Below are positions 22,282 through 29,812 of a stretch of 64,000 nt of DNA, piece by piece (position 1 is the stretch's first letter; the number at the start of each line of letters is the position of its first letter). The stretch is from Escherichia phage vB_EcoM_JNE01. The stretch is from sequence record OR670491. The stretch is one strand, 5' to 3'. The notes beneath the pieces are model-generated. The model was not told the origin of the DNA, ran no database searches, and saw only the letters and a program-made list of their open reading frames with translations. The translations under genes were made by a program, and so were the position numbers.

Positions 22282-22366
22282 GCACTTGTGGTGGAATCGG
22301 TATACACAACGGATTTAAAATCCGTCGCTTTATTGCTTGTGAGTTCAAGTCTCACCAAGTGCACCA
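22282..22366 (+). tRNA. tRNA-Leu (anticodon TAA), type II
   Basis: Acceptor GCACTTG/CAAGTGC; anticodon arm ACGGA-TTTAAAA-TCCGT; 13-nt variable arm; T-arm GTGAG-TTCAAGT-CTCAC; discriminator A; CCA encoded. Confidence 0.8.
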
Positions 22367-22432
22367 ACTCATCGCGTCCAGTTGTGGTAACAGTACAGGA
22401 TTCCGACCTAGTACATCAGAATTCGACTTTCT

Positions 22433-22849
22433 GTGGACGCTCAAATAAAGGTTTATTTTATGCATAGTACTGATGTGATATTACACGGAGTGAGATGTAC
22501 AAATTTACTTTTGGTATCATATATACCAGCACGTGTAAATCGCCAAGACATGGTATATCCAACTTCTAATACAGCAGTGCTAAAAGATGATACACAACTC
22601 GCCTACCGTTATACATTCGCTTATTCACCATATAGTGCTTTGCATGTTATCTTCAAAGAAGATGGTACAGTACAAGTGAAATATGTTGATAATGATCAGT
22701 TTAACGATGCTATCATCTCCAACTTCACTATACATGATACTGAAGAAGAGTTATTCATGAAAAGTACTATACAAAATGATTTTGGTATAGGCACTAAAGA
22801 AATTGAAACATTTCGCTTGATCTGGGATGAGTATTTTGGTACAATTTAG
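22433..22849 (+). CDS. EE-x-FFQxS-motif family protein (variant LFMKS)
   Basis: 138 aa; TEEELFMKSTIQND. Confidence 0.55.
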   Translation: MDAQIKVYFMHSTDVILHGVRCTNLLLVSYIPARVNRQDMVYPTSNTAVLKDDTQLAYRYTFAYSPYSALHVIFKEDGTVQVKYVDNDQFNDAIISNFTIHDTEEELFMKSTIQNDFGIGTKEIETFRLIWDEYFGTI

Positions 22850-22881
22850 TACTGATAAATATTAATGAAAGGTATAGAGAA

Positions 22882-23079
22882 ATGACTAAATCCGAACTTC
22901 TGGCTTTATTAGAAAATTATCCAGATGATGCATGTATTGAAGTAGTTCACACTGCACAACATTTTGACATTGAAGATGTTGTACGATACAATGACAAAGG
23001 TGTGATGATTATGGAACTATGTATCGGTGCTTTGAAAACTGTGCCAGAATCAACTAAACGAAAATCCCAAAAGGAATAA
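22882..23079 (+). CDS. hypothetical protein
   Basis: 65-aa ORF. Confidence 0.45.
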   Translation: MTKSELLALLENYPDDACIEVVHTAQHFDIEDVVRYNDKGVMIMELCIGALKTVPESTKRKSQKE

Positions 23080-23085
23080 AATATT

Positions 23086-23319
23086 ATGGAAACTAATACA
23101 ATTTTAGATGTAGTAAACAGTGTTAATACTGGTGACTTTGTTCACATTCTTTTATCCAACATCCGCGTTAAGGGTATTGTTGAAAGTGTTGATTCTGAAG
23201 TTCTAACTATTGTTGAAGTTGATCCATACGACAATAATAAATCAGTTCGTCTGTGCATTGATGTTTCCAAAATTGTAGCACTCGGTACAGAAATTATTAC
23301 TGAAGAAACTAATCTATAA
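23086..23319 (+). CDS. hypothetical protein
   Basis: 77-aa ORF. Confidence 0.45.
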   Translation: METNTILDVVNSVNTGDFVHILLSNIRVKGIVESVDSEVLTIVEVDPYDNNKSVRLCIDVSKIVALGTEIITEETNL

Positions 23320-23330
23320 AACGACAATAA

Positions 23331-23406
23331 GCGGTAATCGTATAAAGGATATTACCTCGGTTTTCCAAACCGATGATGTGGGTTCGATGTCCCACTTACC
23401 GCTCCA
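23331..23406 (+). tRNA. tRNA-Gly (anticodon TCC)
   Basis: Acceptor GCGGTAA/TTACCGC; anticodon loop TTTCCAA; close resemblance to E. coli tRNA-Gly(UCC) but with one extra nt in the T-loop (TTCGATGT). Confidence 0.75.
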
Positions 23407-23460
23407 ACTTAAGAGGATTTAATATGTTTAAAGATGAACGTCCAGATTTGTAAATAATCA

Positions 23461-23489
23461 TTGACTAAATAATCCAGTACTGATAAAAT
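23461..23489 (+). promoter_or_regulatory. promoter with CAGTACTG spacer motif, upstream of tRNA-Ser
   Basis: TTGACT, 17-nt spacer containing CAGTACTG, TAAAAT. Confidence 0.5.
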
Positions 23490-23495
23490 AAATTT

Positions 23496-23582
23496 AGTGA
23501 AGTGGCAGAGTGGTTTAATGCAACGGTCTTGAAAATCGTCGAGGGTGAAAGTCCTCCGTGAGTTCGAATCTCACCTTCACTG
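23496..23582 (+). tRNA. tRNA-Ser (anticodon TGA), type II
   Basis: Acceptor AGTGAAG/CTTCACT; anticodon arm ACGGT-CTTGAAA-ATCGT; long variable arm; T-arm GTGAG-TTCGAAT-CTCAC. Confidence 0.75.
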
Positions 23583-23589
23583 TCAATAT

Positions 23590-27514: not shown

Positions 27515-28084
27515 GTGTTTAGTATCGTATATTGTAATCAAAAGGATATAATAAAACTCATGGAGAGAGTTGAAGAATGGCGTGATGTTGTTGGTTATGA
27601 AGACCATTTCCAAGTTAGTAACAAAGGTAGAATTTACAGCAAAAGAACAAATAAAATTTTAGTTCAAGGTACTAATAAAAAAGGTTATAAAGTATTAAGT
27701 ACTAGAATTGGTGGAAGAACTGGAGTATGTAAGTGTTTTAGGGTTCATATTTTAGTGGCTCAAGCATTTATATCAAATCCACATAATAAGCCCATTGTAA
27801 ACCATAAAGATGGCAATAAACAAAACAACGAAGACTGGAATTTAGAATGGTCTACATATAGTGAGAATACTAATCATGCTTATAAAAATGGTTTAACAAT
27901 ACCATTAAAAGGAACTGAACAAGTTCAATCCAAATTAACCGAAGATGATGTTAGATACATACGTTCAGTGTATAAACCATATGATAAAACATATGGTGCA
28001 TCTATGTTAGCAAAACAATTTGGTGTACATCATAGTTTAATATCGGATATAGCATCACATAAATCATGGAAGCATGTTAAGTAA
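27515..28084 (+). CDS. HNH homing endonuclease
   Basis: N-terminal motif EEWRDVVGYEDHFQVSNKGRIYS; HNH motif HILVAQAF...NHKDGNKQNN; low GC. Confidence 0.8.
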   Translation: MFSIVYCNQKDIIKLMERVEEWRDVVGYEDHFQVSNKGRIYSKRTNKILVQGTNKKGYKVLSTRIGGRTGVCKCFRVHILVAQAFISNPHNKPIVNHKDGNKQNNEDWNLEWSTYSENTNHAYKNGLTIPLKGTEQVQSKLTEDDVRYIRSVYKPYDKTYGASMLAKQFGVHHSLISDIASHKSWKHVK

Positions 28085-28105
28085 TAAAAAAACAGTACTG
28101 AACAC

Positions 28106-28134
28106 TTGACTAAATAGTTCAGTACTGATATAAT
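28106..28134 (+). promoter_or_regulatory. promoter with CAGTACTG spacer motif
   Basis: TTGACT-AAATAGTTCAGTACTGA-TATAAT. Confidence 0.55.
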
Positions 28135-28146
28135 ACAAACATATTC

Positions 28147-28222
28147 GGCCCTGTATACAATCCAGGAATGTACTCTGCTCATAACAGATGTAAGGTCGGG
28201 GCAGCACCGACCAGGGCCACCA
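28147..28222 (+). tRNA. tRNA-like gene with CAT anticodon and non-canonical T-loop
   Basis: Acceptor GGCCCTG/CAGGGCC + A + CCA; anticodon hairpin TCTG-CTCATAA-CAGA; T-arm GTCGG-GGCAGCA-CCGAC (not TTCRANY). Confidence 0.4.
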
Positions 28223-28382
28223 ATTTTGGACACATTAATCTTCGATGGTAATGCTGGTTAATATCTTACGGCTGTAAAATGCAATACATTACATATTGCT
28301 TCAGGTACAGAGATATAAAGATTAATTAATAAGGTATCCTTATTTTGTCCAATCCTTAATAACTAGAAATGGTGGGAAAGAA

Positions 28383-28829
28383 ATGAAAGGTGTTTCAATT
28401 TTTTACGATTACCATGAACAAGGTTTACCACATCAGATTGCTGGAATCTATTCTACGTCTGATAAAACCGAAGAAGAGATGCGTACTGAATTATTGTCGC
28501 TAATTGGTGAGAGAAGTTTCCATGAACGTGATCAACCAATTTTCATTAACCACACACATTTGTATGCAAAAAGTTTGCTAGGTGAAGAACTTGATAAAAA
28601 GGTGGAATACACTTTGAAACAGTTCTTCCCAATCGCACTTGATGTAGTTGGTTTCAAATCATCGGATTTCAAGTTCATGTACTATGATGTTGAAGCATAT
28701 GAGTTCGCTTGGAACAATCGTTATCATAAACAATTACACCAATATCGTTTAGAACTTCAACATGAAGCGGCTGAAGCATATAAAGCAAAACGAGCAGCAC
28801 AGAAGCTTGAAGGTAACGTACAGAAATGA
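28383..28829 (+). CDS. hypothetical protein
   Basis: 148-aa ORF. Confidence 0.5.
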   Translation: MKGVSIFYDYHEQGLPHQIAGIYSTSDKTEEEMRTELLSLIGERSFHERDQPIFINHTHLYAKSLLGEELDKKVEYTLKQFFPIALDVVGFKSSDFKFMYYDVEAYEFAWNNRYHKQLHQYRLELQHEAAEAYKAKRAAQKLEGNVQK

Positions 28830-29128
28830 TAGAATCTATCTTATGTGTACTGTTGCCAATTTTAGTAGTTGCTTTGATATGTCTTTATTATGGTTACAGT
28901 ACTGTAATTGATAAAAAGCAAGTTTACGTCATTACATTCAGTACTACACATATTGAGTTTGGTAATGTACATACCGGTATCACTTATATTGCATATCGTT
29001 GTAAGTACTTCCATAAGTTCAAATCTTATGATATGATCTATTACTGTGATGAATCCAACGTGAACCGTTATATTGACATAAACGATGAATCAAAAAAATC
29101 GTTTTACAGTTTTAAAGAATTAAAATAA
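28826..29128 (+). CDS. hypothetical membrane protein
   Basis: 100 aa; hydrophobic N-terminus. Confidence 0.5.
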   Translation: MIESILCVLLPILVVALICLYYGYSTVIDKKQVYVITFSTTHIEFGNVHTGITYIAYRCKYFHKFKSYDMIYYCDESNVNRYIDINDESKKSFYSFKELK

Positions 29129-29468
29129 ATGTAGACGGATGTATTCAGTACTGAATCACCAGGGGAGGTTGTAATTCCCGATTCAGTAGCTTTTTAAGCG
29201 GTTTCGTGTGTGCCTACACATTACAACTAGTGCACATTTAAAACCTAGACGTAGGGTGTAAGTATTCAGTACTGAATAGCTGAAGGACTTATTATGGTAC
29301 AATACAGTGCGAGGTACTCCGGTATGCTCAGTTCACCTTTAGCTAAAATGGTCACTGTAGAATATTGTTGCAACAGTATTCAGTACTACTTTTTAATTGA
29401 CACAACTTTGAATGAGGTGTATTATGTTCCAAGAAGAAAACTGGGGTTTTTAACATAAAGGGGAATGT

Positions 29469-29576
29469 ATGAAAGTGAGTAAAGAAACGGCTAAACAGCT
29501 TGAAGAACTTTGTTCAGCACAACCTATGCCTACACTTGCTTTAATCAAGTTAATGCGTCGAAATAAGCAAAAATAA
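29469..29576 (+). CDS. small hypothetical protein (35 aa)
   Basis: ATG after AAAGGGGAA RBS; below track size cutoff. Confidence 0.25.
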   Translation: MKVSKETAKQLEELCSAQPMPTLALIKLMRRNKQK

Positions 29577-29659
29577 AAATGATAAATAATACAGTAAGAT
29601 GACCTCCCCTCAATACGAAAGAGTATGGAGACTTGTTGGTTATCTTACTTCTTAAATTA

Positions 29660-29732
29660 GCCTTCTTAACTCAGTTGGTAGAGTAATCGCCTTGTAAGCG
29701 ATAAGTCATCCGTTCAAGTCGGATAGAGGGCA
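29660..29732 (+). tRNA. tRNA-Thr (anticodon TGT)
   Basis: Acceptor GCCTTCT/AGAGGGC; D-arm ACTC-AGTTGGTAG-AGT; anticodon arm ATCGC-CTTGTAA-GCGAT; T-arm ATCCG-TTCAAGT-CGGAT. Confidence 0.8.
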
Positions 29733-29739
29733 CAAATTA

Positions 29740-29812
29740 GCCGACTTAGCTCAGTAGGTAGAGCAATCCCCTTGTAAGGGAAAGGTCACCAGTTCGATTC
29801 CGGTAGTCGGCA
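29740..29812 (+). tRNA. tRNA-Thr-like (anticodon TGT), second copy
   Basis: Acceptor GCCGACT/AGTCGGC; anticodon loop CTTGTAA; T-loop TTCGATT; one mismatch each in anticodon and T stems. Confidence 0.7.

Follow-up and report, generated by a model that had tools for sequence, protein, structure and literature searches.

A re-wired tRNA-Arg(UCU)-like gene family and further deviant tRNA genes in the tRNA island of an Asteriusvirus jumbo phage of Escherichia coli

The tRNA gene island of Escherichia phage vB_EcoM_JNE01 (sequence record OR670491; positions 22282-29812 of the window, that is, of the whole 64,000-nucleotide (nt) stretch that was analysed) holds ordinary tRNA genes side by side with deviant ones. 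The most valuable outcome of the analysis is a family of re-wired tRNA-Arg(UCU)-like genes, represented in the window at 23590-23671. We tentatively read this gene as a member of an undescribed class of functional tRNA-Arg(UCU), a natural non-circular permutation that would be charged by the host arginyl-tRNA synthetase (ArgRS), would be used by the ribosome, would be spreading horizontally among virulent phages of enterobacteria and actinobacteria, and would be missed by standard tRNA finders. For the island as a whole, the explanation that we consider probable is that the conserved deviant tRNAs are still working decoders, that two further genes are hybrids left as scars of recombination, and that the island has been shuffled. 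Four deviant tRNAs would have been kept by selection, most likely for the decoding of A/U-ending codons over-used by the phage and poorly read by E. coli; their expression, processing, modification, charging and decoding are proposed from the sequences, folds, covariation and distribution described below.

The Arg-like gene and its modules, all on the plus strand, are the following.

23590-23671, plus strand: re-wired tRNA-Arg(UCU)-like gene, 82 nt (Rfam 33.3 bits; family covariance model 104.9 bits)
23590-23596 with 23661-23667, plus strand: acceptor stem
23597-23599, plus strand: UAU, between the acceptor and the D-like stem
23600-23602 (CTC) with 23629-23631 (GAG), plus strand: D-like stem, from covariation
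23604-23620, plus strand: anticodon arm, TCT at 23611-23613
23621-23628, plus strand: 8-nt segment CGTTAATC, between the anticodon arm and GAG
23632-23643, plus strand: D-loop-like segment TAACTGGAGTAT, GGA at 23637-23639
23644-23660, plus strand: T arm, canonical
23668-23671, plus strand: G73 and CCA, 3' end

The match to the Rfam tRNA model RF00005 spans 23590-23668; it skips the D arm and contains an insertion of 20 nt. CTTCTAA is the anticodon loop. The original prediction for this DNA had described perfect acceptor, anticodon and T arms, no foldable D arm, and an extra region. The three arms are present and Rfam likewise deletes the D arm; covariation, however, reveals a 3-bp D-like stem that pairs into the extra region. 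Read 5' to 3', the family consists of the acceptor 5' strand, UAU, CUC, A, the anticodon arm (CUUCUAA), CGUUAAYC, GAG, UAAYUGGAGUAU, the T arm (UUCGARU), the acceptor 3' strand, R73, and usually CCA.

Aligned over 26 distinct sequences, the family has 98.9% of its cells paired, and both sides have changed in 14 of the 24 pairs; 0/500 shuffles scored as high, and slid registers came nowhere near. The acceptor, anticodon and T stems covary throughout. The D-like stem (columns 11-13/40-42, the varying ones of which had been left free in the search pattern) is paired in 26/26 sequences, with two of its three pairs changed on both sides: one pair is U-A in 20, G-C in 5 and A-U in 1, another C-G in 25 and U-A in 1. 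The variants CGC/GCG (five sequences), CAC/GUG and CUU/AAG preserve the pairing of CUC/GAG. Invariant among the columns free of the pattern are U8, A9, U10, the T-loop UUCGA and R73, the discriminator being G in 12 and A in 14 of the 26 members. The anticodon is UCU in all members, in a column partly fixed by the search pattern; the anticodon loop is unchanged in members that were not harvested by pattern.

The strands of the D-like stem flank the anticodon arm, so that D-like and anticodon stems join into a single interrupted hairpin, the length of which is roughly that of the normal D-plus-anticodon stack. The D-loop-like AAYUGGAGUA resembles the D-loop AAUUGGAUA of canonical phage Arg(UCU) and includes the GG that in ordinary tRNAs docks on the T-loop, as well as an A at the place of A20. 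The bacterial arginine identity set comprises A/G73, A20, C35 and U/G36, with A20 as the main ArgRS determinant (PMC9976931). The family fits this set at A/G73, C35 and U/G36; because its GGA segment stands outside any D hairpin, we infer the equivalence to A20. AAYUGGAGUA would then supply the G18/G19 elbow contacts as well as the A20 needed by ArgRS. Reading sequence and pairing together, we take the RNA to be a true permutation of the tRNA core, its modules re-ordered and presumably equivalent in three dimensions to those of a normal core.

Re-ordered modules with their pairing partners kept are also found in the circularly permuted tRNA genes of red algae and in a non-circularly permuted hammerhead; according to Eckert et al. 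2023 (PMC10085705), natural RNAs offered no known non-circular permutation before the latter, and the present family, if the reading is true, would be the second natural case. Red-algal permuted genes are processed back to a standard tRNA, whereas the re-ordered core of the Arg-like molecule would stay in the mature RNA. A circularly permuted gene was rejected here, as the acceptor strands stand in normal order and only the internal modules are re-ordered. D-arm-lacking mitochondrial tRNAs, such as metazoan mt-tRNA-Ser(AGY), are functional without a canonical D hairpin, and there is a further likeness in that two odd genes of the island were picked up by the organellar mode of ARAGORN. The Arg-like family differs from the mitochondrial case in its covarying D-like stem, its GG-containing segment, its canonical T arm and its encoding by virulent phages; membership of that class was discarded on account of the D-like stem, paired in 26/26. 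A variable-arm hairpin GUUA/UAAY was also considered: its pairing holds, but three of the four pairs are constant and its columns are fixed by the pattern, which makes it uninformative.

By sensitive BLAST (at least 80% coverage, 85-100% identity), the Arg-like gene is full-length in 247 phage records, among them Felix O1-like Ounavirinae (Felixounavirus), phi92-like Justusliebigvirus, Klebsiella Mydovirus, Erwinia Kolesnikvirus, Asteriusvirus and Streptomyces Karimacvirus. At every locus inspected it sits in an unannotated gap within a tRNA array; phage 121Q mislabels it as tRNA-Leu(taa), and the tRNAscan-based annotation of SHEFM2K omits it. A degenerate pattern for the gene matched 38 IMG/VR loci and none of 100,044 bacterial and archaeal species genomes. 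Under the family covariance model, members score 91-106 bits and all other tRNAs at most 35 bits, with one copy per locus. No paralog of the re-wired architecture with another anticodon was found in 26 sources, the rest scoring at most 35 bits.

Among loci with at least five tRNAs, 0/40 arrays with the Arg-like gene also hold a canonical Arg(tct), compared with 7/8 arrays that lack it (Fisher p = 1e-7); the loci are partial and related, so that the samples are not independent, and the canonical Arg calls rely on ARAGORN. The 0/40 set includes Felix-like arrays of 23-26 tRNAs that do carry Arg(acg). In Asteriusvirus the slot directly after Ser(tga) is occupied either by the Arg-like gene or by a canonical 77-nt Arg(tct) (G17, UE-S1, JP4), as alternative alleles. 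Absence of co-occurrence and replacement at the same slot together make the gene probably the AGA decoder of the phage, in place of canonical tRNA-Arg(UCU), and the molecule would read AGA instead of the latter.

A different function may be asked of this gene and of the other deviant ones. The deviations, namely the re-wired core, the class II body on a CAU tRNA, A34 and the altered elbows, could have been selected as poor substrates or sponges for tRNA-targeting nucleases of host or prophage, codon supply being secondary, as one form of the original prediction's decoys; this is possible, though rather unlikely, and it is compatible with decoding. Excerpts of four reports describe phage tRNAs that escape or neutralise tRNA-cleaving defences, namely PARIS AriB, retron PtuAB, anticodon nucleases and Schlafens (PMC10264068, PMC11464382, PMC11555353, PMC13056530). 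The Arg-like gene is 85-88% identical across unrelated phage families and absent from cellular genomes, which suggests a horizontally spreading, strongly beneficial module, and the constancy of its anticodon loop beyond the pattern-harvested members would suit such a role. Set against this, no nuclease targeting tRNA-Arg(UCU), tRNA-Ile2 or tRNA-Ser(GCU) was identified here, and codon usage already accounts for the anticodon set. Strict replacement of canonical Arg(UCU) is moreover what suits a working AGA decoder, as do the retained R73, GGA motif and canonical T arm; a pure decoy would presumably need none of them.

If the re-wired tRNA works, RNase P, the CCA-adding enzyme, ArgRS, EF-Tu and the ribosome accept an altered strand connectivity, and the limits of the tRNA fold are wider than drawn. 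Standard finders miss the gene; on this reading, hundreds of published phage genomes are therefore without an annotated AGA decoder, about 250 public ones lacking the tRNA gene, among them Felix O1-like and phi92-like phages that serve in typing and therapy. Directly 3' of the Arg-like gene, at window 23693-24179, lie three tandem 54-aa paralogous open reading frames (ORFs), each beginning ATGACGCATGAAGAATGGATGA; relatives have 2 or 3 copies.

The second deviant gene is a class II tRNA with a CAU anticodon.

25265-25354, plus strand: class II tRNA, anticodon CAU (25299-25301), 90 nt, A73 and CCA (ARAGORN; Rfam 50.4 bits)

It had been predicted as a type II tRNA with anticodon CAT and T-loop TTAGAAT, and reads so; we concur that a class II tRNA with this anticodon is unusual. 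The D arm has 3 bp and an 11-nt loop (GAGNGGNNGAA-like), and the variable region 18 nt. A56 of the T-loop (25334) is matched by U19 (25282), and the loop TTAGAAT is explained as half of a compensated tertiary pair 19:56, which is G:C in four sequences of the family and U:A in the two E. coli phage copies. Homologs are present in G17 (98.9% identity) and in Xanthomonas jumbo phage XbC2 (83%). Soil and marine contigs from a metagenome scan join the copies of the E. coli and Xanthomonas jumbo phages to make a family of six distinct sequences; in these, 98.4% of cells are paired and 14/21 pairs have changed on both sides.

In the acceptor of the six sequences, C4-G69, C5-G68 and A73 are invariant and every other pair varies. 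C5-G68 is a determinant of the lysidine synthetase TilS. The tRNAs ileX, metT, metY, argQ and serV of E. coli, taken by coordinate, served for comparison: pair 27:43 is always a wobble or mismatch in the class II CAU family, as in ileX, and the anticodon stem-loop and T stem are close to those of ileX. E. coli metT has U4-A69 and A5-U68; both CAU families of the island (that of 28147-28222 is treated below) have C-G at these positions, and so neither carries the elongator-Met pairs. The bacterial isoleucine set includes A73 and C4-G69, the methionine set U4-A69 and A5-U68, although the CAU anticodon alone could still permit Met charging if C34 is unmodified (PMC9976931). The determinants fit tRNA-Ile2 or Met on a class II body, not recoding, and the simplest reading of 25265-25354 is a tRNA-Ile2-like AUA decoder on such a body. 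Host TilS would turn C34 into lysidine, so that AUA is read; with C34 unmodified, AUG would be read as Met.

The likeness to E. coli tRNA-Ile2 (ileX/ileY, C34 converted to lysidine by TilS) covers CAU, A73, C4-G69, C5-G68, the 27:43 wobble or mismatch, a near-identical anticodon stem-loop and, in some members, a GCUGG/CCAGC T stem. The differences from it are the class II D arm, the 18-nt variable region, the lack of U12-A23, and the U19:A56 elbow of the E. coli phage copies. A long variable arm and an anticodon beyond Ser, Leu and Tyr are shared with the allo-tRNAs (Mukai et al. 2017, PMC5389517), some of which occur in phages; allo-tRNAs have 8/4 or 9/3 acceptor/T stems and a long D stem capped by a tetraloop, and their discriminator is mostly G73 or U73, in keeping with Ser identity, whereas the class II CAU family has 7/5 stems, a 3-bp D stem, a large D-loop and A73. 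Allo-tRNA membership was accordingly rejected on the 7/5 acceptor and T stems (supported by covariation), A73 and the D arm. The family offers a test case for discrimination by TilS and by the isoleucyl- and methionyl-tRNA synthetases (IleRS, MetRS).

At the position of this gene, after Ser(act), most Asteriusviruses have a 75-nt 'tRNA-Met'; that of UE-S1 (L001:8535-8609; also in 121Q and JP4) has C4-G69, C5-G68 and a non-standard T-loop ATCGTTC. Mimasvirus-type arrays with the class II CAU tRNA also hold a CUA-anticodon tRNA annotated as 'tRNA-Pyl' (L003:2440-2513, L011:1777-1849, L062, L065, L013), likely an amber suppressor.

The third deviant gene lies immediately upstream of the second.

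25165-25256, plus strand: class II tRNA-Ser, anticodon ACU (25199-25201), G73, CCA not encoded, 92 nt (ARAGORN; Rfam 49.9 bits)

The prediction of a Ser-like type II tRNA with the anticodon loop CTACTAA was borne out by the reading. Its variable-arm stem has 8 bp, and it shows the features of tRNA-Ser: a long variable arm, G73, a class II D arm, and a serine-box anticodon complementary to AGU. The gene is 100% identical in the loci of seven relatives, the flanks of which are 85-92% identical. It has been annotated already as tRNA-Ser(act) in G17, 121Q and SHEFM2K (tRNAscan-SE score of the SHEFM2K copy, 63.3), and coexists in WPEC3, Turkey3 and JP4 with a separate Ser(gct) about 72% identical to it. 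In EJP2 a diverged lineage keeps the same 17-nt anticodon stem-loop. Two IMG/VR contigs binned as giant viruses (L073:3037-3119, L074:8448-8530) also have a tRNA-Ser(ACT), with bodies otherwise different; its anticodon stem-loop is exactly that of the phage gene, CTCGC CTACTAA GCGAG. This hints at constraint on the stem-loop. Codon usage in the window, per thousand, is 20.3 for AGU (the commonest Ser codon), 4.4 for AGC, 14.0 for AUA and 7.1 for AGA. On its sequence features, Ser(ACU) is a real tRNA, annotated before by others, and would read AGU by Watson-Crick pairing; it is a test case for A34 decoding, and both it and the class II CAU family would be useful for orthogonal tRNA engineering.

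The original prediction had also thought of recoding tRNAs. Under sense-codon recoding, the class II CAU tRNA would be charged by the leucyl-, seryl- or tyrosyl-tRNA synthetase (LeuRS, SerRS, TyrRS), Ser(ACU) would be deaminated to ICU and also read AGA as Ser, and the Arg-like molecule would be charged with Ala through G3:U70; we regard this as highly improbable. The class II D arm, long variable arm and A73 of the CAU tRNA would suit such charging, the anticodon is not read by LeuRS and SerRS (PMC9976931), and mistranslation by class II tRNAs whose anticodons are not those of Ser is demonstrated by the allo-tRNAs (PMC5389517). Yet the class II CAU family keeps A73 (never G73), C4-G69 and C5-G68 while other acceptor pairs vary, which corresponds to the Ile and not the Met set and is not expected of a mischarged Ser, Leu or Tyr tRNA; Leu identity has against it G15 instead of A15, and the missing G19 of the E. 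coli phage copies. For the Arg-like molecule, G3:U70 is present in the window copy but in only 7/26 members, so that Ala identity was rejected, and R73, C35, U36 and GGA are kept. The stem-loop of Ser(ACU) differs from that of E. coli tRNA-Arg(ACG), a TadA substrate, only at pair 31:39 and position 36; being alike at 14/17 positions to both Arg(ACG) and Ser(GCU), it allows no conclusion on TadA editing. TadA sites require a UACG motif, and the UACU of Ser(ACU) counts against recoding, as does the absence of any sign of an altered genetic code in the window.

The fourth deviant gene stands downstream of a homing endonuclease gene.

27515-28084, plus strand: NUMOD4/HNH homing endonuclease (Pfam PF07463, PF13392; PHROG 59)
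28147-28222, plus strand: 76-nt CAU tRNA (anticodon 28180-28182), acceptor GGCCCTG, A73 and CCA (ARAGORN, organellar mode only)

The stems, the T-loop GGCAGCA (28200-28206) and the consensus promoter that had been noticed here are all present, the promoter at 28106-28134 matching at 11/12 positions with TG. Rfam gave no match to the gene even at E up to 10, and neither CAU tRNA (25265-25354, 28147-28222) had a BLAST match in 5,426 E. coli genomes even at E = 10. The homologs are CBB tRNA7A, annotated as tRNA-Met, and an unannotated gene in the T4-like phage EcS1. All 20/20 stem pairs hold in the three sequences (100% of cells), five of them changed on both sides, and all three have the acceptor GGCCC...GGGCC, A73, C4-G69 and C5-G68. 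The T-loop of the relatives is TTAGACT; GGCAGCA, along with a D-loop that also differs, is peculiar to the window copy. D-loop lengths differ within the family, the register is therefore ambiguous, and U19:A56 covariation is not claimed there. We would place the gene as a second Ile2-like CAU tRNA with an altered elbow: it may have a co-evolved elbow, be an allele immune to the adjacent HNH endonuclease, or be an impaired copy.

The second of these possibilities can be extended to the island, loop changes and conversion tracts that end in tRNA genes then being escapes from the island's HNH endonucleases and compensatory changes preserving tRNA function; as a general explanation it seems improbable. 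It would account for the unique D-loop and T-loop of 28147-28222 and for the mosaic gene order, the NUMOD4/HNH gene lies directly upstream, and the CBB homolog also adjoins an HNH gene. The gene after HNH varies among relatives: UE-S1, JP4 and WPEC3 have Ser(act) there, Turkey5 has Asn. An excerpt of PMC2330249 has the homing endonuclease SegB driving inheritance of the tRNA region of T4. Nevertheless no cleavage site is known, the basis is a single sequence, and the widely conserved Arg-like and class II CAU architectures are left unexplained. In our preferred explanation, that of working decoders in a shuffled island, gene content would be shuffled by recombination inside tRNA genes, and free-standing homing endonucleases would probably aid this.

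Several points weigh against that explanation. The anticodon loop, CGTTAA, GTAA and TGGAGTATGC were fixed by the IMG/VR harvest pattern, and the invariance of the Arg-like family there is partly by construction; a 3-bp D-like stem and a 12-nt linker would have to give a ribosome-competent L-shape. The class II CAU tRNA is without the Ile determinant U12-A23 (its D stem is GCC/GGC) and has a class II body; C29-G41 of the window copy is G-C in one family member and hence not invariant. The variable arm ACAGTTAATGACAC of that family was fixed by the search pattern, so that its apparent invariance is uninformative. A34 is unorthodox outside tRNA-Arg, which bears on Ser(ACU). The T-loop GGCAGCA, without U54, U55 and A58, was found nowhere else in the phage collection or IMG/VR, and the 28147-28222 copy may be impaired.

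Two further genes are hybrids and border a minus-strand ORF.

25360-25432, plus strand: Asn/Met hybrid pseudo-tRNA (called Met(cat) by ARAGORN; Rfam aligns model positions 8-63 only)
25440-27137, minus strand: tail-fibre/hydrolase-like ORF, 565 aa (PHROG 30606, 3e-73; 32409, tail fiber; 16653, hydrolase)
27263-27340, plus strand: Cys/Ser hybrid pseudo-tRNA with GCA loop, 5' part tRNA-Cys(GCA)-like, 3' end from tRNA-Ser(GCU)

The first 25 nt of 25360-25432 derive from Asn(gtt) as in G17, and the following 67 nt are 97% identical to tRNA-Met(CAU) of Eneladusvirus pEa_SNUABM_44. The acceptor strands come from different genes and therefore cannot pair; this chimeric origin lies behind the unpaired acceptor of the Met(CAT)-like gene reported earlier, which Rfam also leaves unaligned. 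The sequence folds no better than shuffled sequence (z = +0.40). In 27263-27340 both T stem and acceptor are broken, and the fold is again no better than shuffled (z = +0.33). The two hybrids bound the ORF 25440-27137, and UE-S1 has the same cassette, which looks like an imported receptor-binding cassette. We take both hybrids to be dead genes, scars at the joints where recombination inside conserved tRNA segments brought in the cassette; they show tRNA genes as recombination joints for the swapping of receptor-binding cassettes. Excerpts of PMC9897764 treat tRNA fragments and hybrids of prokaryotes, partial genes that are reported as tRNAs, and 25360-25432, a tRNA-Met for ARAGORN, resembles them; a difference is that for each island hybrid both parents are identifiable, and that the pair sits at either end of a single inserted cassette. 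UE-S1 also holds, at L001:5589-5663, an Eneladusvirus-type tRNA-Met copy with an intact acceptor and an 8-nt anticodon loop CTTCATAA (ARAGORN anticodon 'tcat'), possibly a decaying copy or a frameshift-type tRNA.

Whether decay extends to all non-canonical members, as drifting pseudogenes conserved only through close kinship of the phages, can be judged at this point, and we find that idea scarcely credible. Two members are truly broken hybrids, the Met copy of UE-S1 has an 8-nt anticodon loop, no other sequence shares the T-loop variant of 28147-28222, and the mini tRNA-like gene listed below is without relatives beyond Turkey5. Three families nevertheless carry compensatory changes across distant phages (14/24, 14/21 and 5/20 pairs, with 98-100% of cells paired), Ser(ACU) is 100% identical between flanks of 85-92%, and a shared strong promoter cassette precedes deviant genes. 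The original prediction of decaying pseudogenes therefore holds for 25360-25432, a dead gene, and not for the other four of its five flagged genes, which show compensatory changes or are 100% conserved.

That 29-nt promoter cassette, TTGACTAAATAGTTCAGTACTGATAWAAT, has the build TTGACT-17-TAAAAT, TG-extended, and occurs in four copies in the window against 0 expected by chance.

22196-22223, plus strand: sigma-70-like promoter before Leu(UAA) and the mini tRNA-like gene (11/12, consensus match only)
23461-23489, plus strand: cassette copy 1, before Ser(tga) and the Arg-like gene
24572-24600, plus strand: cassette copy 2, before a 145-nt RNA
24601-24745, plus strand: structured RNA, 145 nt, kind unassigned, ending in a stem and T-run, behind cassette copy 2
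25126-25154, plus strand: cassette copy 3, before Ser(act), the class II CAU tRNA and the Asn/Met hybrid
27208-27236, plus strand: promoter-like site before the Cys/Ser hybrid (11/12 with TG)
28106-28134, plus strand: cassette copy 4, before 28147-28222 (11/12 consensus match with TG)

Because the common cassette precedes both, odd genes and ordinary tRNAs share transcription signals. The RNA of 24601-24745 is 94-97% conserved in five relatives; a consensus fold was obtained, with no Rfam match and no covariation, the sequences being too alike to show any. At window 29130-29420, a non-coding segment 91-99% identical in eight relatives has two copies of the palindrome ATTCAGTACTGAAT, whose core TCAGTACTGA occurs eight times in the window (0.07 expected) and also forms the spacer of the repeated promoter.

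The remaining tRNA genes of the island are these.

22282-22366, plus strand: tRNA-Leu(UAA), canonical class II, CCA encoded (ARAGORN; Rfam 60.1 bits; Turkey5 97.6% identical)
22374-22442, plus strand: compact tRNA-like gene, 69 nt, status uncertain (ARAGORN, organellar mode only)
23331-23406, plus strand: tRNA-Gly(UCC) (ARAGORN; Rfam 56 bits)
23495-23584, plus strand: tRNA-Ser(UGA), canonical (ARAGORN; Rfam 56.9 bits)
29660-29733, plus strand: tRNA-Thr(UGU), canonical (ARAGORN; Rfam 66.1 bits)
29740-29813, plus strand: tRNA-Thr(UGU), canonical (ARAGORN; Rfam 67.1 bits)

ARAGORN counts 8 genes in the island and RF00005 counts 9. By the gathering threshold of RF00005 (29 bits) together with alignment of all four arms, Leu, Gly, Ser(tga), Ser(act), the class II CAU tRNA and both Thr are standard tRNAs (49.9-67.1 bits). 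All five genes flagged in the original prediction were recovered at its coordinates by ARAGORN, RF00005 and sequence reading, as were its canonical Leu(TAA), Gly(TCC), Ser(TGA) and two Thr(TGT) by ARAGORN and Rfam. Its view that the flagged members are non-canonical is supported. Under the covariance model three odd genes (23590-23671, 25360-25432, 28147-28222) are not full RF00005 cloverleaves; Ser(act) and the class II CAU tRNA align with all arms. Relaxed searches and sequence reading added two odd genes absent from that prediction, the Cys/Ser hybrid 27263-27340 and the cloverleaf with UCC loop at 22374-22442. We would count the Leu-UAA, Gly-UCC, Ser-UGA and two Thr-UGU genes as ordinary tRNAs; Gly(UCC) has an 8-nt T-loop, where Rfam places an insertion, and two non-standard D-stem pairs.

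In the compact gene 22374-22442 the anticodon-type loop is AUUCCGA (UCC), on a bulged anticodon stem of 7-8 bp; the D stem has 3 bp and its loop reads GGUA, and the T-loop is UUCGACU. Its minimum-energy fold is a cloverleaf (z = -2.27). A 100% identical copy is present in Turkey5 and only there within the phage collection; no relatives were found in IMG/VR, and Rfam gave no match.

Its matches assign the region, as a tRNA gene island, to a jumbo phage of E. coli from the genus Asteriusvirus (PBECO4/121Q/G17-like), AT-rich at 35% GC. Megablast of 22000-30100 matched 71 phage records, mostly E. coli jumbo myophages of about 350 kb of the genus Asteriusvirus, PBECO4, 121Q, G17, UE-S1 and Turkey5 among those named. 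No single record covers more than half of the segment, and the island is therefore mosaic; the annotation of G17 gives Gly(tcc), Ser(tga), Arg(tct), Ser(act), a 90-nt Met(cat), Asn(gtt) and Thr(tgt). The tRNA islands of large virulent phages (T4, T5, Rak2-like jumbo phages) show the same clustering with small ORFs and HNH genes and the same suiting of anticodons to over-used A/U-ending codons, and relatives have annotated pseudo-tRNAs (PMC7760394). Unlike those islands, the present one has an unusually high share of deviant members, and its hybrids border an imported tail-fibre cassette. The open-access literature searched gave no account of the Arg-like family as such, nor of the class II CAU tRNA or Ser(ACU), an absence that is weak evidence.

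Elsewhere in the window, 11566-13455 holds a C5 cytosine methyltransferase ORF split by an intein (Hint and LAGLIDADG domains), the intein-free equivalent of which in Turkey5 is labelled 'DNMT2', and 274-1407 encodes a phage TelA-like (toxic anion resistance) protein.

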